Assembly: GCA_963769935.1 (NCBI GenBank)
Contig: CAVYNY010000011.1
Coordinates: 384,001 to 448,000, forward strand
Direction of reading: 5' to 3'
DNA length: 64,000 nt
From: an uncultured delta proteobacterium
GTDB taxonomy: Bacteria; Desulfobacterota; Desulfobacteria; Desulfobacterales; JAFDCJ01
This document shows, piece by piece, positions 7,041 through 27,354 of this stretch (position 1 is its first letter; the number at the start of each line of letters is the position of its first letter). The notes under the pieces were generated by a model, which had not been told where the DNA came from, ran no database searches, and saw only the letters and a program-made list of their open reading frames with translations. A program made the position numbers and the translations under genes.

Positions 7041-7253
7041 TAATGCAGAATACTTTGCAGCACAGGTTTTGCCCATGTGTCTCGTGCTCATAGCCACTGC
7101 GTATTGGCGAAATGCGTCTTTAGGCCAGCGGCTGATAAGATTACCTTGTAGCGGATAGACCTGAAAAAAGCAAGGCCGCGTTTATCATACGCCCGGTGCG
7201 CCAGGCGGGATGCGATTTAATTGTTTGCTTTAATCTGTATATCTGATATTTAA

Positions 7254-7295
7254 TACAAAACTGTATTTATTTTAATCGATTTCAACAAATTCGTA
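7254..7295. promoter_or_regulatory. TACA-N4-TGTA palindrome plus degenerate second copy, upstream of the NifA-like gene
   Basis: TACAaaacTGTA at 7254-7265 and AACAaattCGTA at 7284-7295. Same motif occurs at 15694 and 19185. Confidence 0.55.
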
Positions 7296-7331
7296 ATTTA
7301 TTACCTAAAATATTGGGACAAAATTTTATCC

Positions 7332-8855
7332 ATGGAACCGATTGAAGAAGTTACCCTGTTGTATGAAATCACTACGGCGCTCAATGAGCATCTGGATTTA
7401 AAAAAATCCCTTTACAAGGTGATGGACCTGTTGTCCAACTCTATGAATATGGTGCGGGGAACTATAACCATTTTAAACCCCTTGAGCAACGAGATCAACA
7501 TCGAGGTGGCCCACGGCCTGCCCCTGAATGCCATGGAAAGGGTAAAATACAAACTGGGGGAAGGGGTTACCGGGCGGGTGATTGAAACCGGCAAGGCGGT
7601 GGCCATACCCAAAATCAGCGAGGAACCTCTTTTCCTGGATCGCACCGGTTCGCGCCGGAAGAAAACGGGCCAGGAACTATCTTTTATCTGCGTGCCCGTC
7701 AAAAAGGGCAAACAGGTTATCGGCGCTTTAAGCGTCGATAAGCCCTTTGACAGTGCCTATCCCTTAAAAAGCGGGCAGAAGCTGCTATCCGTTATTGCCA
7801 CCATGCTCGCCAGCCATGTGATCAAGCTGGAAACAATCCGGATGGAAAAGGAGCGGCTGAAAGAGGAGAACCGGCGGCTGCAGAACGTGCTCAAAGACAA
7901 GTACAGCATCGGCAACATCATCGGCAACAGCAACAAAATGCGCGAAGTCTTTCAGATGGTCTCGCAGGTATCCCGAAGCAACGCCACGGTTTTGATCCGG
8001 GGCGAAAGCGGCACCGGCAAGGAACTGGTGGCCAACTCCATCCACTATAACAGCCACCGGGAGAAAAATCCGTTCGTCAAAGTAAACTGTGCCGCTTTGC
8101 CGACCACTCTGATCGAAAGCGAGCTTTTCGGCCATGAAAAAGGCGCTTTTACCGGCGCCATTAAACAGAAGATCGGCAAATTCGAATTGGCCCACAAGGG
8201 GACGATATTTCTGGATGAAATCGGATCCCTCGACCTGGAGGTTCAGGCCAATCTGCTGCGCATCCTGCAGGAAAAAGAATTCGAGCGGGTGGGAGGCCAT
8301 CGCACGATTAAAACCGATGTCAGGATTATTGCCGCCACCAATAAGAATCTGGAGCGCGCCGTGGAGGATGAAACCTTTCGGGGGGACCTTTATTACCGCT
8401 TGAATGTGTTTCCGATTTATCTGCCGCCGCTAAGGGAGCGCAAGACCGATATGCTGCTGTTGGCCGATTATTTTCTGGAGAAATATGCCGCGGAAAACGG
8501 CAAGGACATCAAGCGGCTGTCAACACCGGCCATCGATATGCTCATGGAATATCACTGGCCCGGCAATGTGCGGGAGCTGGAAAACTGCATCGAACGTGCC
8601 GTGCTGCTGTGCGAGGAGGGCGTCATTCACAGCTACCATCTGCCGCCGACCCTTCAGACCGGCCGGGAATCCGATACCGTGCCGTCCCTGTCGCTGGAGG
8701 ATGCCATCGCCAACCTGGAGCGGGAAATGATCATCGATGCCCTGAAAAATACCCGGGGCAATATCACGACTGCCGCCAAAATACTGCAGACCACGGTCAG
8801 AAAGTTTACGTACAAGGCACAGAGATATGGCGTGGACTATAAATACTACCGTTAA
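7332..8855 (+). CDS. NifA-type sigma54-dependent activator (GAF-AAA+-HTH)
   Basis: N-terminal GAF ([22 protein letters not shown]), [30 protein letters not shown], Fis-like HTH. Confidence 0.92.
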
Positions 8856-8940
8856 AACCGGTTTCTTAAATTCCTTGGGGTCTGATAATATTGAGAGCTT
8901 TTTTGATTTTCCGGTGGATTCGAGAAAAAGGGGGGGCCAA

Positions 8941-8970
8941 CAGCCGCCCGCCGAAAACGACGGGCGGCTG
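8941..8970. terminator. Hairpin between the convergent nifA-like and glnA genes
   Basis: Perfect 10-bp stem CAGCCGCCCG...CGGGCGGCTG, 14 nt past the glnA stop. Confidence 0.65.
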
Positions 8971-8984
8971 CTTGCGGGGCCGGG

Positions 8985-10397
8985 TTAAATGTCGTAGTAG
9001 AGATAGAACTCATGGGGATGGGGACGCAGCCGGACATCGTTGATTTCGTTTTCCGTCTTGTAGTCAATCCACATGTCGATGGCGTCCCTGGTGAAGACAT
9101 CGCCTTTCAGCAGATATTCCTGATCGGCCTTCAGAGCTGCCAGGGCTTCATCCAGCGACCCCGGCGCGGAAGGAATTTCGGCCAGCTCTTCCGGGGGCAG
9201 ATTGTAGATGTTTTTGTCCAGCGGATCCCCCGGATCGATTTTGTTCTGAATGCCGTCGATGACCGCCATCACCATAGCGGAAAAAGCCAGGTAACCGTTG
9301 CAGGAGGGATCGGGGGTTCTGAACTCGATCCGTTTGGCCTTGGGCGAAGTGGAGTACATCGGAATCCGGATAGCCGCGCTGCGGTTGCGGCTGGAATAGG
9401 CCAGGTTGACCGGCGCCTCGAAACCCGGCACCAGACGCTTGTAAGAGTTGGTGGTGGGGTTGCTAAAGGCGCACAGAGACTTGCAGTGCTTCAAAATACC
9501 GCCGATGGCATACAACGCCTCCTGGGAGACGCCGGCGTATTTGTCGCCGGCAAACAGCGGTTTGCCTTCTTTCCAGATGCTGATGTGGGTGTGCATGCCG
9601 CTGCCGTTATCTTCAAAGATCGGTTTGGGCATAAACGTAACCGTGTGGTTGTGGCGGTAGGCCACGTTTTTGAGCACGTATTTAAACCACATGAGCTGAT
9701 CGGCCATCTGCACCAGCGGTTTAAAGCGCATGTCGATTTCGGCCTGACCGGCCGTGGCGACTTCATGATGCTGGGCCTCGATTTCGATGCCCAGCTGCTC
9801 CAGGGTCAGAACCATCTCAGACCTCAAATCCTGAAACTTGTCCATGGGCGGGACCGGAAAATAGCCTTCTTTGGGCCGCGGCTTGTACCCCAGGTTGGGT
9901 CCCTCATCGCGACCGGTGTTCCAGGAGCCCTCGATGGAGTCGATCTCGTAGAATGCGCCGAAGCGATTGGATTCAAATCGGATATCGTCAAAGATAAAAA
10001 ACTCCGCTTCGGGACCGATGTATACCACATCCCCAATGCCGGTGTTTTTCAAATAGGCATCGGCTTTGCGAGCGATGTTCCGGGGATCGCGGCTATAGGC
10101 TTCGCGGGTGACCGGGTCAACGATATTGCAGATTAACACCAGGGTCGGTGTGGTATAAAAGGGATCCATTCTGGCGGAATCGGCGTCCGGGATAACCAGC
10201 ATGTCACTGGCATGAATCGGCTGCCAGCCGCGAATACTGGATCCGTCAAAGCCGAAGCCGTCTTCAAAGCTGGATTCTTCCAACTCCCTGATAGGTACGC
10301 TGAAGTGCTGCCAAAGCCCCGGATAATCCATAAACCGTAAATCGACCATTTTTGCGTCGTTTTCCTTTGCCATGTCCAATACTTCTTTGGGGGTCAT
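8985..10397 (-). CDS. glnA: Glutamine synthetase type I (adenylylatable)
   Basis: [54 protein letters not shown]; adenylylation Tyr in NIYNLP. Confidence 0.97.
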
Positions 10398-10415
10398 TTT
10401 TTTTCTCCTTTGATT

Positions 10416-10742
10416 TTAGTTAATAGTTGATAGTTAGTAGTTGATAGTTAGTAGTTGATAGCAGATAGTTCATAGTTGATAGGTAAAAGGCTAAAGGCTA
10501 AAGGTAAAAGGTTAAAGGCAAATGGTATTACTTTACGGTATGCGCTTTGCTCTATGCTCCTTACCCGCTCACCTTCCCAAATTCTTATCTTCTTCTTATC
10601 CTCTCTCCTTTCCGCCTTCCTACCCTCTCACTTTCTGATCTTCTTATCTTCTAACCTTCCCACCATCTTATCTTCTCGCCTTCTCTCTTTTATCGTCTGT
10701 CCTCTGACCTCTGTCTTCTATATCTATACTATGCCCTTTGCT
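10416..10742. repeat. Composite 7/8-mer repeat element, family C
   Basis: GATAGTT and TAAAGGC-type heptamers, a 44-bp core at 10514-10557, then TTCTTATC octamers and TCTGTCC heptamers. Homologous to 35452-35731 and 51581-51850. Confidence 0.85.
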
Positions 10743-11096
<354 letters not shown>

Positions 11097-11103
11097 CTAT
11101 GTT

Positions 11104-11215
11104 ATTGAATATTCAAGATTGCAAATTGAATATTTGTGGATGTCGCCTTGCTCTGTCCTTTTTAAAATGGAAACGATCCTTAAATATTCAATATTCAACC
11201 TAAAATATTCAATTG
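11104..11215. repeat. Palindromic intergenic element, family A
   Basis: attgaatattcaagattgcaaattgaatattt ... aaatattcaatattcaacctaaaatattcaat. Confidence 0.8.
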
Positions 11216-11284
11216 TTACCGGATCTTAATCACATTTCTATAGATTTTTTTGCCACAAAATACACAAAAATAAAAACTAAATTC

Positions 11285-12583
11285 CTATGATGCCTGTATC
11301 TCAAAGGCGCGTTCACCGTGGATGGAATTGTCGAGCCCGATGATTTCACTTTCTTCCTCCACCCGCAGACCTCCGGTTATAAATTTGGTTAGATAGGTGA
11401 CTATCAGGGTGCCGACGGCGGTGAACCCCGCCGTAGCGATGATTGACACGACTTGAAACCAGAGTTGTTTCGGATTGCCGTAAAACAACCCGCGTCCCGC
11501 CTCATTTATGGCCGGGCTGGCAAATAATCCGGTAGCCAACGCCCCCCATATGCCGCACATGCCGTGGACGCCGAACGCATCCAGCGAATCGTCATAGCCG
11601 ATTTTCTGTTTGATTTTGGCGACACTATAAAAGCCAAGCAAGCCGGCGCCGAGACCGATGAGCAAAGCGGCCGGCATATTGACAAACCCGGCGGCCGGCG
11701 TGATGGCTACCAGCCCGGCGACGATGCCGGAGGCCAGGCCCAGCACCGTCGGCTTTTTTTCCACCACCCACTCGGCAAACATCCAGGCCAACGCGCCCAT
11801 GGCGGCCGAAGTGTTGGTAACCAGAAAGGCCGAGCCGGCAATTCCGTCCGCCGCCAGCTGACTGCCGGCATTAAAGCCGAACCAACCGAACCACAACAGG
11901 GCGGCTCCCAGCGCCGTCAACGCAATACTGGAGGGAAACATGGCTTCCCTGCCGTAACCGATTCTTTTGCCCAGCACCAGCGACAGCACCAATCCCCCTA
12001 CGCCGGCATTTATATGAACAACCGTACCGCCGGCAAAATCCAGAGCGCCCATGCGGCCCATCCAGCCGCCGCCCCATACCCAGTGAGCGATCGGGCAGTA
12101 TATGAACGTAACCCAGAGTACCGTAAATACGATCCAGGAGGAAAACTTCATCCGGTCCACGATCGAACCCAGCACCAGCGCCACGGTGATGCAGGCAAAC
12201 GTCATTTGAAACAGGGCAAACACATAGGTCGGTATCGTGCCCGAAAGACTGGCCACGCCGATGCCGGCCATAAAAACGTTTGACAAACCGCCGATGATGC
12301 CCGCCTTGTCCGGTCCGAAAGACAGCGTATATCCCCACATCATCCAGATGACGCTCGCCAGGCAGTAAGCCACCATGGTCATGGCAAATGTATTCAGCAG
12401 GTTCTTATAGCGGGACATGCCGCCGTAAAACAATGCCAAACCGGCCGGAGTCATCATCATGACCAGCGCGGTCGATACAATCATCCAGGCCGTATCACCG
12501 GAATTCAAACCGTCGGCAGCCAACGCCGGGGAGACAGGTACGGCAAGCAAAACCGCAGCGGTCGGCAAACATTTCAGATTCAT
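11285..12583 (-). CDS. amtB: Ammonium transporter
   Basis: GDTAW, GLALFYGG, FQMTFA, DFAGGTVVH, LLWFGWFGFNAGS, YDDSLDAFGVHG. Start moved to ATG 12583 (GGGGAG RBS, signal peptide). Confidence 0.96.
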   Translation of the reverse strand: MNLKCLPTAAVLLAVPVSPALAADGLNSGDTAWMIVSTALVMMMTPAGLALFYGGMSRYKNLLNTFAMTMVAYCLASVIWMMWGYTLSFGPDKAGIIGGLSNVFMAGIGVASLSGTIPTYVFALFQMTFACITVALVLGSIVDRMKFSSWIVFTVLWVTFIYCPIAHWVWGGGWMGRMGALDFAGGTVVHINAGVGGLVLSLVLGKRIGYGREAMFPSSIALTALGAALLWFGWFGFNAGSQLAADGIAGSAFLVTNTSAAMGALAWMFAEWVVEKKPTVLGLASGIVAGLVAITPAAGFVNMPAALLIGLGAGLLGFYSVAKIKQKIGYDDSLDAFGVHGMCGIWGALATGLFASPAINEAGRGLFYGNPKQLWFQVVSIIATAGFTAVGTLIVTYLTKFITGGLRVEEESEIIGLDNSIHGERAFEIQAS

Positions 12584-12608
12584 TTTTTTAATTTCTCCCC
12601 CCCTCTTC

Positions 12609-12747
12609 GATTGAATATTGAAGATTGTCAATTGAATATTTAAGGTATTCTATCGATTTATTTTTCTTCCCTTAACTCCACTTTTAGAAGATTTGAATCA
12701 GATTAAAAATCCTTAATTCGTCATTCGACAATTGTCATTTGTCATTC
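12609..12747. repeat. Palindromic intergenic element, family A
   Basis: gattgaatattgaagattgtcaattgaatatttaaggtattctatcgat ... aattcgtcattcgacaattgtcatttgtcatt. Confidence 0.8.
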
Positions 12748-12750
12748 CAT

Positions 12751-15390
12751 TTATATGCTCGGCAGCCTTTCAAGGACAGCCGACTTTATATGCGCTACCT
12801 GATCCTCCGAATCCACTTTTTGGCCGTGGAGATCCCAGACATAAAATACATCTACCACCTGGTCGGCTTTGGTCGCTATTTTGGCGACCCAGATGTTCAG
12901 ATCGCAGTTAAACAGGGCATCCGTGATGCTGAAAAGCAAACCGGGAAAATCATACGTAAAAACTTCGACAATGGTAAAAAAACTGGAGCTGTTATTGTCC
13001 ACTTTCACACGATGGGGTAAGCGACGCATGCCGTTTTTGATTTGGCGGTAAGCGGACATTTTTTTTCTGACGGCCGCTGCCAGGCTTAACTCTCCGGATA
13101 AGGCCGCAGAAAGATGGCCTGCGGTCCGCTGCCATTTCTCATCTTCCATTATTTGATCCGGCGGCGGATTGACCTCAAAAATATCCAGAGCGATGTTGTT
13201 GCGCCAAGTGAACACCTGGACATCGAGAATGTCGATGTTATTTAAGGTAAATACCCCGGCAATTTTTGAAATCAGCCCGGGGCGGTCTTTGGCGCAGATG
13301 GTGACCGAGCGGGTGTTCGCGTCGGCTGAGCGTTTGACATCCCACAGGAAGTCGGCGTCGCCAAGTTGGCGATAAAGCGCAATATGTTCCAGGATTGACT
13401 TGGCCGGCATGTAAAGACGGTAGCGCGGAGACATTTTGTCGAACAGAGCGGAAGTGGCCTGGGCTTCAAGGGAGGGGACGGAACCGAGGATTATTTTTCT
13501 TTTCTGCTCAATGACATTGACGGCCTCTTCGGTGGCCAGTTCTCCTTTCTCCAGTACGTTTAGAACTTTGAGAAAAAAATCCCGCAGCAAAGCGGCCGTC
13601 CAGTCGTTCCATGCCGTCGGGCCGGTTGAGATGGAGTCGGACACGGTCAGCAGATACAGCATTTTCAACCGTTCAATATCTTTAATTTTTCTGGCACTGG
13701 AAATGGCTGTTTCTTCATCATTAATATCCCGGCGGGTGGCGGTTTTGATCAAGTGGAGGTGATGCCGGACGAGAAAAACGACGCTTTCGACGTCCCGGAC
13801 TTTCAGGCCTTTTTTGGTGAGGAGTTTTTCGATGATGGCGGCGCCTTTTTCCGCATGGTCTTCGGTCGCATCCCCTTTGCCGATGTCGTGGAGCAGCGCG
13901 GCCCAGAGCAAAATATGTTTGTTCTTGAGCTCACGGTAGAGCTGGGCGCATAGCGGCTCCAGACTGCTGTCCAAGGTCGTGCCGAATTTTTTGATGGTCT
14001 GGACGGTTCGCAGCAAATGTTTGTCCACCGGGTACAAATGGTATTCATCGTATTGGATGCGGTTTATGACACCGCGAAAGGCCGGCAATAACCGCACCAG
14101 AAATCCGGTGTTCAGCAATTCATTCAACACATTCAGCGGCGCGACCGGAGCTGCCAGAATGCGTTCGAAAGATTGCACCACCGGCTCGGAGTCGCAAAAT
14201 CGTCGATTGGCCAGATGGGAAAATTCTTTGACCAGTCTTTTGGCCTCTGCGCTCAGCGGAATCTGCAATCGGGCGCTTTCTTCAAATATCCTGATTAAAA
14301 GATCCGGAGATTCAATAATTTTTTCGGGGGCCGCAAAATTAAGCATGCCCCATTCGATTACTTCCAGACCGTCGACATCGCTCTTTTTCTGGGATTTCCT
14401 TCTCCTCTGGCGCTTTTTTTCAAGGCCCAGCTCATACAAAAACATCAGATGCTGCTGCTTCAGCGATTCCATGCACCCGTGCAGGTCTCCCAGAAACCGC
14501 TCCACCGGCTGTTGCCCATTGTTGGCTTTATAGTTCAATGTCTCGGCCAGCTTGATCTGGTTTTCAAAGTGCAGCTGATCGCATTTTCGGCCGCAAAGGT
14601 GGTGCAGGTGGTTGCGCACCAGCCAGATAAATTTCAGGCAGCGCCTTAGGGTTCGGTACTCCTCATGGGAGAGCAGTCCGAAGTATTCAAGATCGCGCGG
14701 CTCCTTCAGGTTAAACTCGATCTGTCCGATCCACAACATGGTATGATAGTCCCGCAGGCCGCCCCGCCCCTCCTTAAGGTTGGGTTCGAGAAGATAGGTC
14801 GAATCGCCGAAGTGGCCATGCCGCATTTCATTGTTCTGAACGAGCCAGCTAATAATGGAGCGGGATTTTTTGCGGATAATCTTTTGACGCAACTGCTCCA
14901 TCAGATCAGAAAATAGATGCGACCAGCCGCAGATAAACCGTGCATCCAGGACCGGGGTCAATATGTCGAAATCCCTTCCGCAAAGCTGCAGAGACTCTTT
15001 GAGGGACCGGGTGGCGTAACCGACATCCAGACCGATATCCCACAAAGGATATACAATCTCCCGGATCAGGTTCTCGGCTTGATCCGGCACCCTTTTTTTG
15101 AATAAAAACAACAGGTCGACATCGGAATGAATGCATTGTTCCTGCCGGCCATAGCCGCCCAGGGCAATTATGGCATACGGATTTTTGCTGATATCCATGC
15201 GGGGACCGACCATGCTGGTCTCAAAAGCCTGCCTGAAATAATCATCCAGAATGCGGGCATGCCTTCTAAGAAAGTCAGGCTCTTTGCCGTCTAATAGACG
15301 GTCTATCAGCGCCCCGGTTTTCTGCTGCAGCTCCGCAGATGCATGTTCAAAAATGTTGTCCATATTAATATTCTGGGTAGCCGGTAACAT
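12751..15390 (-). CDS. glnD: PII uridylyltransferase/uridylyl-removing enzyme
   Basis: ALGGYGR..SDVDLL, EPNLKEGRGGLRD, HD domain (LLHDIGKG), two ACT domains (DRPGL, DFPGLL..DVFYV). Confidence 0.95.
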   Translation of the reverse strand: MLPATQNINMDNIFEHASAELQQKTGALIDRLLDGKEPDFLRRHARILDDYFRQAFETSMVGPRMDISKNPYAIIALGGYGRQEQCIHSDVDLLFLFKKRVPDQAENLIREIVYPLWDIGLDVGYATRSLKESLQLCGRDFDILTPVLDARFICGWSHLFSDLMEQLRQKIIRKKSRSIISWLVQNNEMRHGHFGDSTYLLEPNLKEGRGGLRDYHTMLWIGQIEFNLKEPRDLEYFGLLSHEEYRTLRRCLKFIWLVRNHLHHLCGRKCDQLHFENQIKLAETLNYKANNGQQPVERFLGDLHGCMESLKQQHLMFLYELGLEKKRQRRRKSQKKSDVDGLEVIEWGMLNFAAPEKIIESPDLLIRIFEESARLQIPLSAEAKRLVKEFSHLANRRFCDSEPVVQSFERILAAPVAPLNVLNELLNTGFLVRLLPAFRGVINRIQYDEYHLYPVDKHLLRTVQTIKKFGTTLDSSLEPLCAQLYRELKNKHILLWAALLHDIGKGDATEDHAEKGAAIIEKLLTKKGLKVRDVESVVFLVRHHLHLIKTATRRDINDEETAISSARKIKDIERLKMLYLLTVSDSISTGPTAWNDWTAALLRDFFLKVLNVLEKGELATEEAVNVIEQKRKIILGSVPSLEAQATSALFDKMSPRYRLYMPAKSILEHIALYRQLGDADFLWDVKRSADANTRSVTICAKDRPGLISKIAGVFTLNNIDILDVQVFTWRNNIALDIFEVNPPPDQIMEDEKWQRTAGHLSAALSGELSLAAAVRKKMSAYRQIKNGMRRLPHRVKVDNNSSSFFTIVEVFTYDFPGLLFSITDALFNCDLNIWVAKIATKADQVVDVFYVWDLHGQKVDSEDQVAHIKSAVLERLPSI

Positions 15391-15567
15391 TAAAATTTTC
15401 CCCGCCTGATTACTCCGCCCTGAAAATCAGAGACATCCGGTTTAGAAAACACCAAATGGTCAAATTGAACCTGATGAAAATTTGCACTGTTGCCCGGACG
15501 GATGAATTGCCTTTTTCAAAGAATCCTATCCAATCTCGAACATGCTATCTTTCAGCGCGGATTAATC

Positions 15568-15583
15568 AGCAATATGTGTGCCA
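15568..15583 (-). promoter_or_regulatory. sigma54 (-24/-12) promoter of glnD-amtB-glnB-glnA
   Basis: Minus strand TGGCAC-ACATA-TTGCT, an exact consensus match. Confidence 0.85.
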
Positions 15584-15662
15584 TGGCATGGCTAGACTCA
15601 GAAAAGGTAATGGTTTCAATGGATAGAACGATTAAACCCAATAAAAAATAAAAATAAGTTAT

Positions 15663-15707
15663 TACAAATTTGCTGAAAATTTGTTAAAAATATTACAAAT
15701 TTGTAAT
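15663..15707. promoter_or_regulatory. Candidate upstream activator sequence for the glnD promoter
   Basis: Perfect palindrome ATTACAAATTTGTAAT (15692-15707), second copy TACAaattTGCT (15663-15674), and an overlapping TGT-N10-ACA (15682-15697). Confidence 0.7.
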
Positions 15708-15719
15708 TCCTCTTTTTTA

Positions 15720-18638
15720 TTATTTGCCGTCGAACACGCTTTGCCAGATTTCGGCCACTCTTTGCTGCAGGTGGCTGTATCTTTCCCGCGGGACACTGGA
15801 GGGCTTCTCCTGCAGACTGAGTTGATGCGCGGCGGCGCGGTAGATTAAATAGGCATGTTTGAGCAGGTGAGCGGTATACTCATCCAGCACACCGGTTTCG
15901 CTCAAGGATTGAAGCAGGCGGACATTGTCGGTCCATTTCAGCAGGCCGGGATGTTTGTGGGAATTGAGCAGCACGAGATACTGCACCAGAAACTCAATAT
16001 CCACCATGGCTCCGACGTCCTGTTTGAGGTCAAAAACCTCCGGGGCCGGGTTGAGAAGTTCTTTGCGCATTTTCTCGCGCATCCGCACGACCTCTTCTTT
16101 CAGCCTGGTTTCAGGCCGTGAACGGGCAAGCACTTTTGAGCGTATCGTTTCAAAGCGTTCGGCCAATATTTCATCCCCGCAGATGGGTCGCGCCTTGATC
16201 AGCGCCTGATGTTCCCAGGTCCAGGCCTCGTCGAGCTGGTAATCTCCAAAAGCCTTGATATGGCTGACCAGTATGCCGGAACTGCCGCTGGGCCTCAAAC
16301 GCATGTCGATTTCGTAGGCCTTGCCGGCGCGGGTATGAGCGGTGAGGATGTGAATGACGCGCTGGCCGAGTCGGTTGAAGAACTGCGCGCTGTCGATGGC
16401 ACTCCTGCCGCCCCGGGTTGGCGCGCCGGTTCCCGCGTGCAGAAAAACGAGGTCAAGATCCGACCCATAGCCGAGTTCCAGTCCGCCGAGCTTGCCGTAA
16501 GCGACAACGGCAAAGCCCCGCTGGCAGGCCCTGTTCTCCAGCCGGCAGGCCGGGACACCGTGTTTTGCCACCAGATGATTGAAGGCCAGATCGACCACCT
16601 CTTTAAGAATGGTTTCGGCGATTGCCGAGAGATAATCACTGACCCGCATCAGCGGCAAGGTGCCGGCAACATCGGCCGTCGCCACGCGCAGGACATTGAC
16701 CTGTTTGAAAATGCACAGCTGTTCAATCTGGTATTCCAGGTCGTCAGGCGCTACCAGGTCAAGTCGCCGGCGCAAACCGACCTGCAATTCGCGACTTTCA
16801 GGGGGCAGATAAAGGGTGCGCGCATCCAGCAGTTCATCCAGCAGCACCGGATGGCGCGCCAGAAAAGAGGCAATCCAGGGACTGGCATTCGACAGTTTCA
16901 CCAGATGGGAGAGGGCGGTGGGGTTCTCCAGCAGCAGGGCCAGGTAGCTGGAGCGCCTTTCAATGGTTTTGATCAAATCGACAATGCGGCGCAGGGTGAT
17001 CAGCGGATATTCACAGGCACTGATCTCTTTTAAAAAAAGGGGCATCAATTTATCAAGCCGCCGGCGCCCCCTGGAACTCAACGCCCGGGTTGCCGGATCG
17101 TTTTTTAAATAACCCAAAAGCTGCAGCACTTCATTCGGTTGCTCATAACCCAGTTCGGCAAGCATGCCTGGGGCCTGCCGGTCATCCACCGGATTTTGCC
17201 AGATGCCGTCCAACCGGTCCTCAGTTTTCAGCCGCGGATCCTCGCTGTCACCGGATGCCAGGAGCATCTGGAAATGGTCGTGAACGCTTTTTCGCCGATT
17301 ATTCAATGTCGCATCAAATGCCTGGATCGCCGCAAAACCCATGGAATTCGCCAGGCGCAATTGTCCGATTTCATCGGACGGCAGCTGGTGGGTTTGCTGA
17401 TCGGCGCACTCCTGGAGCCTGTTTTCGGTGCGGCGCAAAAAAATGTAGGCCCCGGTCAGCTCATCGCACACCGCCTGCGGGATTTGCTGTTCATCGGCCA
17501 GCGCTTTTAAAACATTCAAGATGCCGGTCTGCTGAAGAGACGGAACCACGCCGCCGCGGATCAGCTGGAAAATCTGGCCGAAAAATTCGATCTCCCGGAT
17601 TCCGCCCGGTCCCAGCTTGATATCGTTTGCCATGCCTTTACGTTTGACTTCCCGGGTGATCATCTGCTTCATTTCTCTTAGCGACTCAAAGGCGCTGTAA
17701 TCCAGGTATCGGCGGTAAATAAACGGATGAAGCTGTTCAAGCAGATGCGCCCCGGCAGCTTTATCGCCGGCCGCAGTTCTGGCTTTGATCAGGGCATAGC
17801 GCTCCCATTCCCGCCCTTGGTCCTGGTAATAGTGCTCCAAGGCATTAAAATCCATGGCCAACGGACCGCTTTCGCCAAAAGGGCGCAGGCGCAGATCAAC
17901 CCGAAACACAAATCCATCGGCCGTCGGATGGCCGATGACTTTTATCAGGCGGCGGCACAGCCGCGAAAAAAAATCCTCATTGCTCACCGAACTGCCGGCC
18001 CCGCGGGTTTGGCCGGCCTTTGGATAGGCGAAGATTAAGTCGACATCGGAGGAAAAATTGAGTTCACGGGCGCCCAGCTTGCCCAGGCCTAAAACAACCA
18101 GATGCTGTTTTGAGCCGTCGGCGGCCGTCGGCACCCCCAAGGTCGCACACTGCCATTGGTAAAGAACGTCGAGAGTCTGTTCCAGGCAGGCATCCGCAAA
18201 AGCAGACAATTCCGTCATGGTTTCCAACAGATTCGCCCAGCCCGCCAAATCCCGCCAGGCAATGCGGGTCAGCTCGCGACGGCGACAGCGGCGCAGCAGA
18301 CCCATCAACGCTTGTTCATCATTGACACCCGCCGTCAGCTCTTTGAATTTGCGCTGATACTCGTCGGGTTGGAGTCTGCGGATCAAATCACCGCTTGCCA
18401 CAAGGTCGCCCAAGAGGGACGGCTCGCGCGTGCACCCGGCGGACACAAACTCACTGAAGGCCAATACCGGCGCCAGGCTTTTGAGTATTTCGGGATTGGT
18501 GAAGGGGGGGATGCCGGCCGCCGCCGCCGAGGTTTGAAAGGCCCGCCAGCGGATCCGGAAGGCTTCAGCGAGAGGTTGGGGGAGATTGTCGGGAAATGTC
18601 CATTGTCCGTTGTCGGTTGTCCGTTGCATATTATCCAT
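15720..18638 (-). CDS. glnE: Bifunctional glutamine synthetase adenylyltransferase/adenylyl-removing enzyme
   Basis: Two nucleotidyltransferase domains: LGKLGARELNFSSDVDL..RVDLRLRPFG and YGKLGGLELGYGSDLDL..DMRLRPSG; WEHQAL. Confidence 0.96.
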   Translation of the reverse strand: MDNMQRTTDNGQWTFPDNLPQPLAEAFRIRWRAFQTSAAAAGIPPFTNPEILKSLAPVLAFSEFVSAGCTREPSLLGDLVASGDLIRRLQPDEYQRKFKELTAGVNDEQALMGLLRRCRRRELTRIAWRDLAGWANLLETMTELSAFADACLEQTLDVLYQWQCATLGVPTAADGSKQHLVVLGLGKLGARELNFSSDVDLIFAYPKAGQTRGAGSSVSNEDFFSRLCRRLIKVIGHPTADGFVFRVDLRLRPFGESGPLAMDFNALEHYYQDQGREWERYALIKARTAAGDKAAGAHLLEQLHPFIYRRYLDYSAFESLREMKQMITREVKRKGMANDIKLGPGGIREIEFFGQIFQLIRGGVVPSLQQTGILNVLKALADEQQIPQAVCDELTGAYIFLRRTENRLQECADQQTHQLPSDEIGQLRLANSMGFAAIQAFDATLNNRRKSVHDHFQMLLASGDSEDPRLKTEDRLDGIWQNPVDDRQAPGMLAELGYEQPNEVLQLLGYLKNDPATRALSSRGRRRLDKLMPLFLKEISACEYPLITLRRIVDLIKTIERRSSYLALLLENPTALSHLVKLSNASPWIASFLARHPVLLDELLDARTLYLPPESRELQVGLRRRLDLVAPDDLEYQIEQLCIFKQVNVLRVATADVAGTLPLMRVSDYLSAIAETILKEVVDLAFNHLVAKHGVPACRLENRACQRGFAVVAYGKLGGLELGYGSDLDLVFLHAGTGAPTRGGRSAIDSAQFFNRLGQRVIHILTAHTRAGKAYEIDMRLRPSGSSGILVSHIKAFGDYQLDEAWTWEHQALIKARPICGDEILAERFETIRSKVLARSRPETRLKEEVVRMREKMRKELLNPAPEVFDLKQDVGAMVDIEFLVQYLVLLNSHKHPGLLKWTDNVRLLQSLSETGVLDEYTAHLLKHAYLIYRAAAHQLSLQEKPSSVPRERYSHLQQRVAEIWQSVFDGK

Positions 18639-18658
18639 TGTCAGCTAATCCGGATTCC

Positions 18659-19114
18659 CTAATCCGATGACGGCGGCAGCAGCTTATAAATTTCAAGCAA
18701 ACGACTGCCCAAGGTGGCCGCCAGATGCTTAAAGAAAATTATTCCGTTGGCCGGATCTTCTTCCAGCACTTTGCCAAGCTTATTACAATCTGTTACAAGC
18801 AATTTGGTCTGCTCGACACATTCGGCGGAGGCCGAATATGTGTCACGTCCAATTAAGCTGGACCAGCCGAAGGCCTCCCCGTTTTTGCCGATATCGTATA
18901 CCATCCGGCTGCCTTCACCGATGCTCAACTTTACCCTGCCGTTGAGCAGGATGTAAAAAAACCGGGCCGGATCATTTTCACGAAACAGGACGTCACCTTT
19001 TTCATGGGATATCATGCGAGATATTTCCATGATTTTCTTGACGAAATCCATGCTCGTTCCCAATAGAAGATCTGATTGCTTGATATACATGATTTTCACC
19101 GCCTCACCGGACAA
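18659..19114 (-). CDS. Stand-alone cyclic-nucleotide-binding (Crp-like effector) domain protein
   Basis: KGDVLFREND..FYILLNGRV..GEAFGW..YSASA; no HTH. True start may be ~19090-19099. Confidence 0.8.
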   Translation of the reverse strand: MSGEAVKIMYIKQSDLLLGTSMDFVKKIMEISRMISHEKGDVLFRENDPARFFYILLNGRVKLSIGEGSRMVYDIGKNGEAFGWSSLIGRDTYSASAECVEQTKLLVTDCNKLGKVLEEDPANGIIFFKHLAATLGSRLLEIYKLLPPSSD

Positions 19115-19184
19115 TCCGATTTGTCTTTAGCCTTATGCGGCTTAATATAAAATCAAGTGTCCGGCATGTCAAAACATAAATTGT

Positions 19185-19196
19185 TACATTTTTGTA
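19185..19196. promoter_or_regulatory. Candidate upstream activator sequence for the glutamate synthase promoter
   Basis: TACAttttTGTA, at almost the same distance from the -24 box as the site at the glnD promoter. Confidence 0.65.
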
Positions 19197-19305
19197 GCTT
19201 GCTGGGCGCTTAAAAAACATTAATGCCATTAAAAATTGACAAAGCGAGCAGCTGCTTTTAAAGTCCGCCGTGGTTTTTGCCTTGAAAAAAGTCCAAAACC
19301 GATTG

Positions 19306-19321
19306 TGGCACGCCTATTGCT
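19306..19321 (+). promoter_or_regulatory. sigma54 (-24/-12) promoter of the glutamate synthase operon
   Basis: TGGCAC-GCCTA-TTGCT, an exact consensus match. Confidence 0.85.
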
Positions 19322-19457
19322 GCAGTCATGACCATCATGCGAGATTGATGATACCGGGTGCGGCCGGGGCATTAAGGCTCTCAATAAGCGAGTTGTGAAA
19401 TTAATTAATTTTAATATTTTCCTAATCCGAAAAAAGTGATATAAGCTCAGAACCGAA

Positions 19458-19486
19458 TTAGCGAAATTTTTTGATTGGGCTATAAT
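19458..19486 (+). promoter_or_regulatory. Possible second, sigma70-type promoter
   Basis: TTAGCG-N17-TATAAT (perfect -10, weak -35). Confidence 0.4.
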
Positions 19487-19668
19487 TTGGAATTTTTGAA
19501 ATTTACCTGACTATGCCCGCACGGGCATTTTAAACAGTGTTGGTCGGCAATTGAAAACTCAACATTTTGCCCCGTCCGGCTGCGACGGGTTCCAGCCTAT
19601 TTAATGCCCCGCGTCATTTAAATGCATGCCCGTCGAAATGAATTCCATTCATAAAAGGAGTTGAAAAA

Positions 19669-20799
19669 ATGTGCCGTTTATTTTCAATAACGAGCAGAGA
19701 TCCGCTGTCTCCCATGGTCGCCCTGCAGGCTCTGGATGTCATGCGCGAAGGCCATGACTGTTCCGGTGTCGGGATTTTTTTGCGTGATCTGGCCGGACCG
19801 TTTGAGGAGATCAAAGACGCCCCGATTCTATCCGGTATTTTCAGCGATTCCGGGTTGAGGCGCCTGGATTCCTTTATGATGGATGTCGGCTTTATGACGA
19901 AATATAAAATTTCCATCAAATTGCCTAAAACACCGCCGCCGGGCGTGCCCAAGCGGGATGTCTATTTAATCCGGGCCTACGAGTACCCGGAGGAATGGGA
20001 AGAATTAAGCCGGCAGGAACTGTATGACAGGCTGTTGATGATCCGGCTGCAGCTGAGGGCCATGGGTGAGGAAAAAAACGACATGATCGTCTATTCCTTC
20101 TGGCCGGATGTGATTATGATCAAGGAAATCGGGGATCCCCTGCTGGTGGCGGAGCATTTAAATCTTGACCGCAAAGAACTGCATGCCCGGGTTATCATGG
20201 CCCAGGGCCGGCAGAACACCAACTATGCCATTACGCTTTACGCGTGTCATCCTTTCTTCATTCAGGGCTATTCAACGATGACCAACGGGGAAAACACCGC
20301 CTTTGTTCCGATCAGATCCTATCTCGAATCCCGGGGATTTCCGGGATACTCCGGCTACCAATCGGATTCGGAAGTTTTCACCCACATCCTGCATTATACG
20401 ATCAAAAAGCTTGGCCTGGGAATCGAAACTTACAAGCACGTCATTACGCCGCTGCAGGATGAAGATCTGCAGGATCACCCCAATGCCCATTTCTTAAAAA
20501 ACCTGAAGCAAACCTGCCGGCAGTTAATTATTGACGGCCCCAATTGCGTCATCGGCTGTCTGCCGGACCACAGCGTTTTTATGGTGCAGGACCGCAAGAA
20601 GCTCCGGCCGGGGGTTGTGGGCGGCAGGCCCGGAATGTATGCATTTGCTTCAGAAATTTGCGGCCTGGATGCCGCAATACCGAATCGTGATAAACTCCGG
20701 GACTTTCAGCCGATGTATTTGGATACGGTCGTCGTTGGTCCGGATCGACAGGAGGTGTCGATATGCTCCCAGACAGACCCATTAACCCTTCCACATTAA
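19669..20799 (+). CDS. Glutamate synthase, class II glutamine amidotransferase subunit (GltB domain 1)
   Basis: N-terminal nucleophile MCRL, GRQNTN, CHPF, TNGE, SDSEV, DRKKLRP. Confidence 0.85.
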   Translation: MCRLFSITSRDPLSPMVALQALDVMREGHDCSGVGIFLRDLAGPFEEIKDAPILSGIFSDSGLRRLDSFMMDVGFMTKYKISIKLPKTPPPGVPKRDVYLIRAYEYPEEWEELSRQELYDRLLMIRLQLRAMGEEKNDMIVYSFWPDVIMIKEIGDPLLVAEHLNLDRKELHARVIMAQGRQNTNYAITLYACHPFFIQGYSTMTNGENTAFVPIRSYLESRGFPGYSGYQSDSEVFTHILHYTIKKLGLGIETYKHVITPLQDEDLQDHPNAHFLKNLKQTCRQLIIDGPNCVIGCLPDHSVFMVQDRKKLRPGVVGGRPGMYAFASEICGLDAAIPNRDKLRDFQPMYLDTVVVGPDRQEVSICSQTDPLTLPH

Positions 20800-22400
20800 G
20801 CGTTAAAGACCTGCCGTGGCAGATTGTATGGGCTAAAGATAAATGTACCCTTTGCGGCAAATGCACTGCCGTGTGTCCCGTCAACGCGATTGAATTGGGG
20901 GTGTTTCGCAAACGCGAACTGCAACCGCCGGTGGACGGATTCATAGTGCCGCCCACCAGTGTCTATAAAGCTTACTACGGTATCCGCCAAAGGACCGATC
21001 CGGCCTACAAGTGTGTCGGCTGTGCGATGTGCAACCTGGTCTGTCCCAACGACGCCATCGCGCCGGCGCGGGCCGATGAAACCGACAAATTTCGCTTTCA
21101 TGTCGATCGGGGCGGACAGCCGCGCCGCCGGGGCGGCCGGCGCAATGTGCAGGGCGGAATCCTGGATCGGTTAAAATTTATCCGCATTTCAATGCTGACC
21201 GACCCCGCCCTGGATGCAGGACGCCACGAATTTGAATTGCGCACGCTTCTGGGACGGGTGCTGCCCCCCGAAGAAAACCTGAAGTTCCTGCAGAATAACG
21301 GCTGGATCCCGCCGGTCAGAGAAATCTACCCCCTGATCATCGGCAGCATGTCTTTCGGCGCGCTGTCGCCCACGATGTGGGAAGGGCTTCAAATGGGGGT
21401 GGCCTATCTCAACGAGGAGCTCGGCATGCCGGTGCGTATCTGTACCGGTGAAGGCGGCTGTCCGCCGCGGCTATTGCGCTCGCGGTTTTTGAAGTATGTC
21501 ATTTTACAGATCGCCAGCGGCTATTTCGGCTGGGATGAAATCATTCATGCCCTGCCCGAGATGAAGGAGGATCCCTGCGCCATTGAAATCAAGTACGGCC
21601 AGGGGGCCAAGCCCGGAGACGGGGGCCTGCTGATGTGGTACAAAGTCAACAAGCTGATTGCCGCCATCCGGGGGGTGCCGGCCGGGATCAATCTGCCCAG
21701 TCCGCCGACCCACCAAACCAAGTATTCCATTGAGGAATCCGTTGCCAAAATGATTCAGTCCATGTACATGGCCTGGGGTTTCAGGGTGCCGGTTTATCCA
21801 AAAATATCGGGCACTTCAACCGCTCTGGCGGTTTTAAACAACCTGACCCGCAATCCCTACGCGGCAGGACTCGCGATCGACGGTGAGGACGGCGGTACGG
21901 GCGCCGCATACAACGTATCCATGAATCATATGGGACATCCCATTGCCAGCAACATCCGCGACTGCTACCTGAATCTTGTCAATCTGGGCTTCCAGAATCA
22001 GGTTCCGCTGTTTGCCGGCGGCGGGGTCGGCAAAACCGGAAATCTGGCGGCCAATGCCGCGGCCCTCATCATGCTGGGCGCCAGCGGTATTCAAATCGGC
22101 AAATACATCATGCAGGCGGCGGCCGGATGTCTGGGATCGGAGTCGGATCGCTGCAACATCTGCAATATCGGTCTTTGCCCCAAAGGGATTACCTCCCAGG
22201 ATCCACGCCTGTATCGGCGTCTGAATTCCGAAGATGTGGCCCAGCGGGTGGTGGATGTGTACCTGAGCTTTGATACTGAATTGAGAAAAATAGTGGCCCC
22301 CCTGGGACGCTCCACATCTCTGCCGATCGGGATGTCGGATGCGCTGGGTATCGATGACTATAATGCAGCGGAGAGACTGAAGATTAAGTATGTGGTGTGA
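20763..22400 (+). CDS. Glutamate synthase FMN-binding subunit with N-terminal 2x[4Fe-4S] (GltB domain 2)
   Basis: Two CxxCxxCxxxCP motifs, MSFGALS, TGEGG, QIASGYFG, EIKYGQGAKPGDGG, DGEDGGTGA, CPKGITSQDP. Confidence 0.92.
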   Translation: MLPDRPINPSTLSVKDLPWQIVWAKDKCTLCGKCTAVCPVNAIELGVFRKRELQPPVDGFIVPPTSVYKAYYGIRQRTDPAYKCVGCAMCNLVCPNDAIAPARADETDKFRFHVDRGGQPRRRGGRRNVQGGILDRLKFIRISMLTDPALDAGRHEFELRTLLGRVLPPEENLKFLQNNGWIPPVREIYPLIIGSMSFGALSPTMWEGLQMGVAYLNEELGMPVRICTGEGGCPPRLLRSRFLKYVILQIASGYFGWDEIIHALPEMKEDPCAIEIKYGQGAKPGDGGLLMWYKVNKLIAAIRGVPAGINLPSPPTHQTKYSIEESVAKMIQSMYMAWGFRVPVYPKISGTSTALAVLNNLTRNPYAAGLAIDGEDGGTGAAYNVSMNHMGHPIASNIRDCYLNLVNLGFQNQVPLFAGGGVGKTGNLAANAAALIMLGASGIQIGKYIMQAAAGCLGSESDRCNICNIGLCPKGITSQDPRLYRRLNSEDVAQRVVDVYLSFDTELRKIVAPLGRSTSLPIGMSDALGIDDYNAAERLKIKYVV

Positions 22401-22414
22401 GTTGGAGAGAACCC

Positions 22415-24764
22415 ATGTCTAACCGAGAAATAAAAGGCAGCGCAACCTTATACAAGATTTCCGGCCGTGTCGCCGGACAACGTGTTGACTCCAGGATTAT
22501 TGAAGAGCAGATTCAAACGGCGGTGGAACAGGGCCACCGGAGACTGCAGATCGAGGCTTTCGGCCAGCACGGCATTGGGGGACGATTGTGGCGGGCCGGC
22601 AATGAAGCGGTTCACCTTGAAATCGTCGGTCAGCCCGGACAACGGGTCGGATCCATGGGATTTGCCAACACCTCCATCGAGGTCCTCGGACCGGCATCCG
22701 ATGATGTGGGATGGCTCAATGCCGGCGCGGAGATTGTAGTGCACGGCAATGTCGGCAATGGATGTGCCAACGCCATGGCCCAGGGCAAAATTTATGTTGC
22801 CGGCAACCTCGGTGCGCGGGGCATGACCATGACCAAGCACAACCCGCGCTTCGATCCGCCGGAACTCTGGATACTGGGTTCGGTTGGAGATTACTTCGGT
22901 GAATTTATGGCGGGCGGCGTAGCCGTGGTCTGCGGCCATGAAGCTCAAAACAAAGAAAATATTCTCGGCTACCGGCCATTGGTGGGAATGGTCGGCGGCA
23001 AAATATTCTTCCGCGGATCTCACGGGGGGTACAGCGAATCGGATGCCAAGCTGGTTACCATCGGCGATGATGACTGGAACTGGCTGCTTGAAAACCTGCG
23101 GCTCTTCCTGGATCGCATCGGCCGATCCGAGCTGGCGGCTCCGTTTTCAGAGCGCAGCCGCTGGCAGTTGCTTGTCGCCCGCTCCCCTCAGGAAAAAATC
23201 GCCCGTCCGATGCGCTCGTTGCAATCGTTTAATTCGGAAGTCTGGCAAAAGGAACTCGGCCAGGGCGGCCTTATTGGAGATCTCTCCGATCTGGATCGCA
23301 GTCAGATCGCCCTGATCACTTCGGGATATCTGCGGCGGTTTGTTCCGGTTTGGGAAAACCGCAAGTACGCTGCACCCTGCGAGGCGACCTGTCCCACAGG
23401 AATACCGGTGCAGGAACGCTGGCGATTGATTCGCGCAGGCCGGGTCGATGAAGCGGTCGACCTGGCGCTTGCCTACACGCCGTTTCCGGCATCGGTGTGC
23501 GGATACCTGTGTCCCAATTTGTGCATGCAGTCATGCAGCCGCCGGATTGCGGCGATGGCACCCGTGGATACCACCCAGCTGGGCAAGGCCAGCATCAATG
23601 CCAGAGCTGCCGGAACTGCCGCCCGAATCGGACAAGAAAATAGCCGTTATCGGCGGCGGACCGGCCGGTATATCCGTTGCCTGGCAGCTGCGGCTGAAAG
23701 GACACCAGGTTGTGATTTATGAAATGGCGCCGGATATCGGCGGTAAATTCAGCCGCATTATTCCTGCCAGCCGGATTCCCAAAGAAATCATTGCCGCCGA
23801 ACTGCAGCGGGTGAAAGAGGTCTTGCCCCATGTCCATCATCAGAAACCTCTCGCCAAACAGGACATCAAACAACTGCGCGAAGATTTTGATTTTGTGGTG
23901 ATTGCCACCGGCGCCCAAAAGCCCAGAACCTTACCGATACCGGGCAATGAGCGGGCGGTGACGGCGCTGGAATTTCTCCAAAAGGCCAAAGCCGACACGG
24001 CCAAAGTCGGCGAACAGGTGGTTATTATCGGCGCCGGCAATGTCGGCTGCGATGCAGCCACCGAAGCCCAGCGACTCGGTGCCCGGGAGATCACCCTGTT
24101 GGATGTGCAGGAGCCGGCATCTTTCGGCAAGGAAAGACAGGCGGCCGAAGCCATCGGTGCCAAATTCAGATGGCCGGTCTTCACCCGGGAGATTAGCGCC
24201 GATGCGGTCATCCTCAAAACCGGCGAGAAAATTGTCGCCGACACGGTGATCATATCCATCGGCGATGTGCCGGATCTTGAGTTTCTACCCGATGATGTGA
24301 CCACCGAAAAAGGCTTCGTGAAGGTCAACGATCATTTTTTAACCGCCGATCCCAAAATATTTGCCATCGGCGATGTCGTCAGACCCGGACTTTTGACCGA
24401 TGCCATCGGCGCCGGGCGCATCGTCGCCCAGACGATCTGCGATATCTTAGAGGACAAGCCCCCGGAAGTCCGCCGACGTGAAATGATCGATCGCAACCGG
24501 ATTACCCTGGAATATTTTGATCCCCGGATTACCGAATACAGTGATCTGGATCACTGCGGGTCCCAGTGTTCATCCTGCGGCGCCTGCCGCGACTGCGGCA
24601 TCTGCGTGGCGACCTGCCCCCGGCATGCCATCAGCCGGCAAGAATCGGATGGCGCGGATTATGAATATGTGGTAGCTGAAGATCTTTGCATCGGGTGCGG
24701 ATTTTGCGCCGGTGCCTGCCCGTGCGGGGTATGGGACCTGGTGGAAAATACGCCGATCGGATAG
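22415..24764 (+). CDS. Fused GltB domain 3 (GXGXG) + GltD-like FAD/NAD(P)H oxidoreductase with C-terminal ferredoxin; +1 frameshift at ~23603-23606
   Basis: ORF 22397-23722 holds the GXGXG repeats and APCEATCP..CGYLCPNLCMQSC. The +1 frame continues LPELPPESDKKIAVIGGGPAG, IIGAGNVGCD, FAIGD and two CxxCxxCxxxCP. ATG 22415 has a GGAGAG RBS. Confidence 0.88.
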
Positions 24765-24920
24765 GCGCCTGCGCCTAATTTTATGCTATAGATACAGAAT
24801 TGTGTTGATTAAATTCGATGGTTTCAGGTGAGGTGTCAGAATCGGCGGCAGTTATCTGGTGTTCCGTGATGGTGGATCAGAAATGCCGGCACGTTTTAAA
24901 TTCAAAAATCAACAAAGGAA

Positions 24921-25197
24921 AAAGTCCAAATTCCAAGCACCAAATTCCAAATAAATCCCAAATTACAACAATTAATGACCAAAACAGACTAAACCAGGAA
25001 AAGGTCGCTTTTTTATTTATTTTTCCGTGTTTTGGAATTTTGAATCTTGGTCATTGTAATTTGTTTGAGCCCGCCCTGGTGCGACGTGCTTGGGTTACAC
25101 TTTTAACCTGCTCTGGTTTGGGCGTGAATGCAGTAAATACTTCAAGCGGCAAATCGGTCTGGGCCAGGGATTTGTCATTTGGAATTTGTGATTTTTA
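24921..25197. repeat. Palindromic intergenic element, family B (AAATTCC.../...GGAATTT) with a nested insert
   Basis: About 80 bp are near-identical to 43516-43596. The right arm is interrupted by a ~100-bp insert bounded by CCCTGG...CCAGGG. Confidence 0.85.
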
Positions 25198-25305
25198 GCA
25201 GACCCGGCGACGCCGGAGGCGCTGGCACCTGACACATGAAACCGATATCTCAGCTCAAGTGCCTGAAATTTTAAAGCATTTCTATATCAGAGGAGTCTAA
25301 ACATT

Positions 25306-26844: not shown

Positions 26845-27354
26845 ATGCTCGAATCGCGATATCTGAAAGATAATATCGAAAATATTCAAAAGCTTTTGGC
26901 AATTCCCGCCCTTAGAAATTTTGAAACCAAAAGTCTGCAGAAACTGCTCAGGTTAAGCAAAATCAGGGAATACGACGACGGTGAAATGATCATCAAGGAA
27001 GGTGATCTGGATCCGTGGCTTTATTTCATGCTTTCCGGCAAGATCCGGGTCAGCAAAGAAGAAATGGAGATCAACACCATTGACAAGAAGGGTGAAATCT
27101 TCGGTGAGATGCGAATTATCGACAGCCTGAAACGATCGGCTTCGGTTTATGCGGTCGGCAAAACCATCTGCCTGGCTGTTGATACATCTGCCAAAAACCG
27201 GATCTCCGATCAGGATCCCATGGATGAGAAGCTGGATTTTTTGCTCTTATTATACCGCATATTTGCCGAATATATGTCGATCCGTCTGCGGGCCACCAAC
27301 GAAGAACTGATTACCGCCAAAAAGAAAATCAAGCGTCTGCTCACTAAAATATGA
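26845..27354 (+). CDS. Cyclic-nucleotide-binding domain protein
   Basis: GEMIIKEGD..LYFMLSGKI..GEIFGEM..RSASV; no HTH. Confidence 0.82.
   Translation: MLESRYLKDNIENIQKLLAIPALRNFETKSLQKLLRLSKIREYDDGEMIIKEGDLDPWLYFMLSGKIRVSKEEMEINTIDKKGEIFGEMRIIDSLKRSASVYAVGKTICLAVDTSAKNRISDQDPMDEKLDFLLLLYRIFAEYMSIRLRATNEELITAKKKIKRLLTKI

Follow-up and report, generated by a model that had tools for sequence, protein, structure and literature searches.

A one-component GAF-domain activator as the likely sigma54-dependent regulator of ammonium assimilation in an uncultured member of the Desulfobacterales: an extension of the predicted DVU1949 regulon

A stretch of 64,000 nucleotides from an uncultured delta proteobacterium of the order Desulfobacterales (contig CAVYNY010000011.1, positions 384,001 to 448,000; hereafter the window, whose coordinates are used throughout unless a contig is named) carries genes of ammonium assimilation next to a gene for a sigma54 activator built of GAF, AAA+ and helix-turn-helix (HTH) domains. 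We consider this GAF-AAA+-HTH protein to be the likely master activator of ammonium assimilation, which would bind paired palindromes ahead of sigma54 boxes and repress its own gene, and we put the probability of this reading at roughly 85%; it is built on genes, sites, boxes, spacing, conservation and clade membership that are observed directly. The observation is real and the motif is conserved. Both this type of regulon and its motif are already in print as a prediction for Desulfovibrio (Kazakov et al., 2015; PMC4641369), and hence we report an extension and not a new system. The initial annotation of this DNA implied novelty by proposing that a NifA-type activator binds a palindrome of a different kind; the same type of site had been predicted for DVU1949, as the tables of that paper indicate, and its core is the AnfA consensus TAC-N6-GTA.

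Exact TACA-N4-TGTA occurs three times in the window (7254, 15694 and 19185), a number that none of 100 shuffled versions reached (mean 0.14), and exact TGGCAC-N5-TTGC boxes stand at 15569-15583 on the minus strand, ahead of glnD, and at 19306-19320 on the plus strand, ahead of the glutamate synthase (GOGAT) operon. What the initial annotation had placed was recovered: the two sigma54 promoters, the distances between the palindrome centre and the first T of the box (116.5 bp on the glnD side and 115.5 bp on the GOGAT side, the same when re-measured), an exact palindrome before the activator gene (7254-7265), and degenerate second copies at two of the sites, 30 bp (7282-7297) and 31 bp (15661-15676) away. 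A weak copy that it did not list can be read by eye at 19214-19229, 31 bp from the main GOGAT site, with a profile score below 5. The consensus of the palindrome is RTTACA-W4-TGTAAY, and its usual form is two copies 30-31 bp apart. Across the 7.99-Mb genome, the exact 12-mer occurs 24 times and shows no enrichment, spacers of 0-13 giving 17-44 matches; the signal resides in the placement of the palindromes, not in their number. A third exact sigma54 consensus, at 22755-22769 on the minus strand, lies within coding sequence with no palindrome upstream and is probably a chance match. No integration host factor-like consensus lies between sites and boxes at 12 of 13 promoters.

Motif search in orthologous upstream regions, which the initial annotation had suggested as a check, indicates at the level of sequence that the palindrome is conserved both before the activator gene and at sigma54 nitrogen promoters. 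For the activator, 425 loci were confirmed and the 80 best of them taken, among which the named close relatives are mostly Desulfobacterales, and 75 had usable upstream DNA. Within 300 bp upstream, the palindrome is exact in 33 of these 75 and has at most one mismatch in 60, compared with 0-2 exact occurrences, or 2-20 with one mismatch, for other spacers. Conservation at this site covers the two arms as well as the A/T spacer, and close relatives have a further copy at +30. The canonical NifA site, TGT-N10-ACA, is indeed present at 15682-15697, as had been noted, and is one of seven in the window; its overlap with the palindrome is incidental. Of the 13 glnD promoters of orthologs just one has TGT-N10-ACA, located elsewhere, and the motif is found in 5 of the 75 activator leaders as opposed to 57 for ACA-N4-TGT.

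Sigma54 boxes precede glnD in 13 of 19 ortholog loci; sites stand 115.5-117.5 bp from the box in 10 of these 13 and 84.5-86.5 bp from it in nine, and the remaining three have sites farther away. Among 29 ortholog GOGAT loci (the best matches of the search), 15 possess a box, 11 of the 15 have a site and six have a 30-31 bp pair, most distal-site distances being 104.5-125.5 bp. The fixed spacing of 116 bp put forward initially is therefore typical only, as the other promoters described below also deviate from it. When 201 genomes of the phylum were searched for ACA-W4-TGT followed by a sigma54 box 95-125 bases later, the strict pattern was found in 54, compared with five for swapped halves and one for the reversed pattern. 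It occurs in 47 of 123 genomes with a strong match to the activator, 4 of 20 with a weak match and 3 of 58 with none, counts that include kin and so are not independent.

The regulon is not self-contained within the window, as was first supposed. A profile made solely from the leaders of activator genes in other genomes (44 sites) marks 79 sites with a score of at least 11 in the genome at hand, and an intergenic position combined with a sigma54 box is found at four promoters, three of them for nitrogen genes. Two lie in the window and the other two are unlinked to it. The promoter at C10:150003, with sites at 157.5, 127.5 and 97.5 bp, drives a second set of nitrogen genes that encode PII, Amt and full-length GltB, whereas that at C14:106462, with sites at 137.5 and 106.5 bp, precedes the gene of a 63-amino-acid zinc-finger protein. 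The PII-amt-gltB operon (C10:147818-156585, locus L086) is divergent from another GAF sigma54 activator gene and a gene with a cyclic nucleotide monophosphate (cNMP) domain. In the window, profile matches without a sigma54 box are also seen at 33099-33114 (score 13.9) and 24791-24806 (8.1), the latter directly ahead of a 126-amino-acid open reading frame (ORF; 24818-25198) and purF.

So what kind of protein is the activator? It has no receiver domain, and it falls narrowly below the cut-off of the NifA model TIGR01817 (520 vs 528.85) and far below that of the NtrC model TIGR01818 (343 vs 558.6). No nifH was found in its genome, which is 96.7% complete (best match 44 bits). In a tree of 30 rows, the activator and L159, a DVU1949-type protein of genome G037, fall within a clade of 18 rows (support 98/95), and the same clade makes up 48 of 67 rows in a larger tree (Shimodaira-Hasegawa-like approximate likelihood ratio test, SH-aLRT, 99). 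Approximately unbiased (AU) tests, with groups named after the larger tree had been viewed, reject grouping with NifA (p 0.0225) and with the DVUA0143 type (p 0.0004). The trees include no named AnfA or VnfA row, and L159 stands in for DVU1949: its gene lies behind hypothetical-iorA-iorB, and an iorAB context is given for DVU1949 in the passages of PMC4641369. In the DNA-binding-domain table of that paper (supplementary file 2), the sequence given for DVU1949 is the C-terminus of a protein that plasmid pDV encodes, and it therefore is not chromosomal DVU1949; the view that the activator is not DVU1949-like, which was drawn from this table, was dropped. Comparison with L094 and L159 makes the first three rows look mislabelled, the C-terminus of L159 resembling the row labelled DVU0569, so that there is an apparent shift of labels in this part of the supplement. 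The window activator and L159 share 47% identity and are mutual best matches; NifA and DVUA0143 also match the window protein best, the inner order of the clade is unresolved in the trees, and some genomes hold several paralogs.

In Desulfovibrio vulgaris, DVU1231-1233 encode Amt, PII and GlnD, and DVU3392 is glnA. DVU1949 of D. vulgaris Hildenborough and other Desulfovibrionales is predicted to control nine operons of 'nitrogen metabolism and transport' in addition to itself (PMC4641369). Its regulon shares with the present one a one-component activator with the GAFTGA motif, an autoregulation site and 16-bp sites of the same type, several of them 30-32 bp apart; on reading, the published site ATTACAAAATTGTAAT and the window site ATTACAAATTTGTAAT are both of this type, nTTACA-W4-TGTAAn. 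Unlike DVU1949, the activator considered here belongs to a bacterium of a different order and is encoded beside glnA, not behind iorAB. A fixed enhancer-to-promoter geometry, the linkage to glnE and the zinc-finger target do not appear in the text passages and tables of PMC4641369, and a literature search, in a library without most subscription journals, yielded no further paper on DVU1949.

The site of AnfA from Rhodobacter capsulatus, TAC-N6-GTA, has been mapped experimentally (PMC7294313), that of VnfA being GTAC-N6-GTAC. The palindrome TACA-N4-TGTA is a case of the former, and AnfA also shares with the window system two sites per promoter and the GAF-AAA+-HTH layout. In contrast to AnfA and VnfA, the predicted targets here belong to nitrogen assimilation, the search of the genome yielded no nitrogenase, and the GAF domain has a single cysteine (Cys120) and lacks the AnfA/VnfA cysteine motif. 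DVUA0143, a predicted nitrogenase regulator on pDV1, likewise has ACA-W4-TGT in its predicted sites but differs in their C/G flanks, its NifA-like HTH and its placement in a separate clade. The NtrC site differs from the window palindrome. Enterobacterial NtrC/NtrB and GnfL/GnfM of Geobacter sulfurreducens (PMC2995071) resemble the present system in paired upstream sites, in sigma54 promoters of glnA, amtB and PII genes, and, as predicted here, in repression where sites overlap the promoter, whereas the window activator is without a receiver domain or partner kinase. The conservation of NtrBC in this phylum is limited, according to the part of PMC12316311 that bears on it. The closest solved GAF domain to that of the activator is the one of Aquifex aeolicus Nlh1 (4G3K, E 1.5e-25), which the relevant passage of PMC9866876 describes as a speculated regulator of nitrogen assimilation whose ligand is unknown.

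The simplest scenario would have the activator switch on, under nitrogen shortage, glnD-amtB-glnB-glnA, the split glutamate synthase, the second glnB-amtB-gltB operon and the zinc-finger gene. Enhancer-binding proteins as a class are established to bind as dimers, assemble rings and act through DNA looping. The paired sites, 85-160 bp upstream of the -24/-12 boxes, fit such a mechanism. Here, two dimers would occupy sites spaced by three helical turns (30-31 bp), build an AAA+ ring and contact the sigma54 polymerase via a DNA loop. The autoregulation put forward in the initial annotation holds insofar as the site before the activator gene is conserved, and it is likely to be negative: a sigma54-like box is present in just two of the 75 activator leaders, and -35/-10-like hexamers flank or overlap the site, which points to a site pair that overlaps a housekeeping-type promoter and would block it. 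As for the signal, binding of a small nitrogen-status metabolite, for instance 2-oxoglutarate, to the GAF domain seems the best candidate, at about even odds, PII-mediated control being the main alternative. Residue F101 of the activator (conserved in 38 of 42 rows) aligns with F119 of PDB 9QQ6, which we take to be Azotobacter vinelandii NifA. The substitution F119S in A. vinelandii NifA abolishes 2-oxoglutarate binding, as stated in the passage of PMC9866876 on this mutant, and so the alignment favours a metabolite signal. A predicted complex between a PII trimer and the GAF domain scored 0.00, with controls that were not folded, and favours neither side.

Several facts weigh against this interpretation. 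Some 60 sigma54 activators are encoded in the genome (61 matches), and a site before a regulator gene fits control by another regulator as well. The ACA-W4-TGT core is common to the predicted DVUA0143 motif, the HTH of which differs, and therefore the core alone names no binder; that the palindrome core also agrees with the mapped AnfA site, TAC-N6-GTA, further weakens certainty on this point. The leader of the L159 operon carries just a degenerate site (score below 8), L159 being a stand-in, and the DVU1949 regulon itself is, in PMC4641369, a single computational prediction from autoregulation alone. Of the 78 genomes that lack a strong match to the activator, 7 still show the phylum pattern, which in its strict form is missing from 76 of the 123 with such a match; among more distant homologs (L127-L166), a site scoring at least 9.5 lies within 350 bp in 14 of 40, by a hand count that includes other clades. 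In the genome, a number of strong intergenic sites stand apart from any sigma54 box or nitrogen gene. Finally, the -10-like hexamer at the activator's own site partly coincides with the right arm of that site, so that the overlap with a sigma70 promoter argues only weakly for repression.

Could another activator bind the motif, with the window gene merely a target? The GAF activator at C10:147818-149380 adjoins the triple site, and a strong site precedes its start by 155 bp; an NtrC-like response regulator is suggested by the tables of PMC4641369, in which DVU1231-1233 are assigned to DVU1949 as well as to the response regulator DVU3220, and by the use of two-component GnfL/GnfM in Geobacter, as described in PMC2995071; that two regulator clades share the motif core also leaves room for a different binder. 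Yet among genomes with motif-bearing promoters, close orthologs of the C10 activator were found in three of five and those of the window activator in all five, and it is the window activator family that the site-plus-box pattern tracks across the phylum. No protein of the genome passes the NtrC cut-off (best 498 vs 558.6 bits), and, as read from the sequences, the gene of the best one adjoins sugar-transport and dicarboxylate-type transporter genes. We thus regard a different binder as improbable. A receiver-type activator with a NifA-like HTH (C11:628007) was rejected as the binder; judged by the sequences of its neighbours, it sits among sulfate-activation and surface-protein genes.

One might also envisage that the window activator binds these sites as one input of a shared or hierarchical circuit in which some promoters need other activators too, and that its own-gene site activates or is simply part of a promoter. 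The variation of spacing with promoter class, the 14 of 29 GOGAT orthologs with no strong sigma54 box within 800 bp, and the frequent resemblance of the right arm of the own-gene site to a -10 hexamer (22 counts in 61 regions) are all compatible with such a circuit; the spacing classes, though, differ by about whole helical turns, and the conserved arms, A/T spacer and +30 copy of the own-gene site also speak against it; we consider this alternative a very remote one. That canonical NifA acts through TGT-N10-ACA at 15682-15697, the palindromes being incidental, is scarcely credible, as the near-cut-off TIGR01817 score and the presence of that site are outweighed by its rarity in ortholog promoters and leaders, the failure to find nifH and the AU test against NifA.

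Returning to the activator as the likely master regulator, we find among its candidate targets one that is new here, the 63-amino-acid zinc-finger mini-protein, predicted to be a conserved target. Its gene is divergent from a gene for the gamma subunit of a 2-oxoacid oxidoreductase. Database searches gave 14 close homologs of the mini-protein, and 39 of 401 genomes of the order contain a match. Among 36 homolog loci (35 with enough upstream DNA; the set includes near-duplicates and one false match), a strong site precedes the gene in 20 of 35 and a pair in 14 of 35. The corresponding figures are 0 of 32 for downstream controls and 4 of 600 for random leaders of the own genome. TGGCA is found 124.5-140.5 bp from the distal site in 18 of 19 selected site-bearing loci, the -12 element often being a variant. 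This makes the mini-protein gene a probable nitrogen-starvation gene in Desulfobacterales. The motif CxxC-x18-CxxC is seen in 27 of 31 rows, and at E<=0.1 five of the 31 match PF06689 and 16 match LIM. The structural model (predicted local distance difference test score, pLDDT, 73) resembles ClpX and LIM zinc fingers, the best Foldseek rows (E>=0.12), with no match at E<=0.001 in the fold search and only unnamed clusters in the ESM Atlas. No paper on the mini-protein came up in the same library.

Taken further, these leads might suggest that throughout Desulfobacterota the place of NtrBC as master nitrogen switch is taken by a one-component GAF activator, which in Desulfobacterales also induces a stand-alone mini-protein with the shape of the ClpX zinc-binding domain. 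That protein would be an effector of nitrogen starvation, perhaps by serving ClpXP proteolysis as a decoy or adaptor or by inhibiting an enzyme that consumes 2-oxoacids, for instance the divergent oxidoreductase. We offer this combined proposal tentatively and think it doubtful in full. On firmer ground, an activator family beside glnA, glnB and amtB, together with the co-occurrence of motif, promoter geometry and regulator across the phylum, strengthens the DVU1949 assignment and defines exact sites for binding or reporter work; it also brings up an uncharacterised small protein whose gene probably belongs to the response to nitrogen starvation. For annotation, the label 'nifA' in these sediment bacteria does not imply nitrogen fixation, and the DNA-binding-domain table of PMC4641369, judging from its first rows, may mislead orthology calls.

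Table 1. Sites and genes of the predicted nitrogen regulon (window coordinates unless a contig is given)
Feature	Position	Strand	Basis or remark
Main palindromic site before activator gene, likely autorepression site	7252..7267	.	score 12.5; conserved in 60/75 orthologs
Degenerate second site, 30 bp downstream	7282..7297	.	score 9.1; in orthologs, second sites are most often offset by +30 (9 counts)
GAF-AAA+-HTH (HTH_8) sigma54 activator, 507 amino acids, DVU1949-type clade, GAFTGA intact	7332..8855	+	domain matches, tree
glnA, type I glutamine synthetase	8985..10397	-	TIGR00653 above cut-off
PII protein (glnB/glnK)	10743..11081	-	PII models, below their cut-offs
amtB, ammonium transporter	11285..12631	-	TIGR00836 above cut-off
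glnD, uridylyltransferase	12751..15390	-	TIGR01693 above cut-off
sigma54 -24/-12 box of glnD-amtB-glnB-glnA	15568..15583	-	consensus; ortholog boxes
Predicted proximal enhancer site, 85.5 bp from box	15661..15676	.	9/13 orthologs at 84.5-86.5
Predicted distal enhancer site, 116.5 bp from box	15692..15707	.	score 22.7, best of the genome; 10/13 orthologs at 115.5-117.5
glnE, adenylyltransferase, no own sigma54 box found	15720..18638	-	NF008292 above cut-off
ORF for a stand-alone cNMP-binding domain, before glnE and divergent from GOGAT	18659..19114	-	PF00027
Predicted distal enhancer site of GOGAT promoter, 115.5 bp from box	19183..19198	.	score 15.8
Weak second copy 84.5 bp from box and 31 bp downstream of the distal site	19214..19229	.	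by eye; clear pair in 6/29 orthologs
sigma54 -24/-12 box of split glutamate synthase operon	19306..19321	+	consensus
First gene of split GOGAT operon, probably glutamine amidotransferase part	19669..20799	+	label from context; no family match
Glutamate synthase FMN-domain subunit with ferredoxin	20763..22400	+	PF01645
GXGXG + FAD/Fe-S subunit, one gene split near 23604	22397..24764	+	domain matches, relatives
63-amino-acid CxxC-x18-CxxC mini-protein	C14:106206-106397 (L087:8206-8397)	-	sigma54 box and paired sites

The activator gene is convergent with glnA, glnB, amtB and glnD; glnE and the cNMP-domain ORF follow farther up on the strand of the gln genes, and the split glutamate synthase operon is oriented opposite to glnD-glnA. 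Rfam matched nothing in the window or in the C10 (L086) and C14 (L087) loci. All 29 ortholog loci have a gene of the 19669..20799 type beside the Glu_synthase gene. An extra base at 23604-23605 breaks the GXGXG/FAD subunit into two ORFs, whereas relatives have a single ORF of about 796 amino acids; since the base is also missing from three genomes of the same genus and from 4/4 public runs, the split is probably an assembly error. Contigs of two RNA runs link 12750 to 19665, a join that suggests a relative whose GOGAT operon abuts the end of glnD.

The ORF at 18659-19114 also stands ahead of glnE beside GOGAT in two other loci (L172 and L173), and a second stand-alone cNMP-binding-domain ORF lies at 26845-27354. 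Crp-type domains bind 2-oxoglutarate in NtcA, and a role of these ORFs in nitrogen sensing is thus possible, by analogy. In many close relatives (L001-L080), dinB is divergent from the activator gene and upstream of it; here dinB is at 3527-4684 on the minus strand, and a peptidase T-like gene intervenes between the two.

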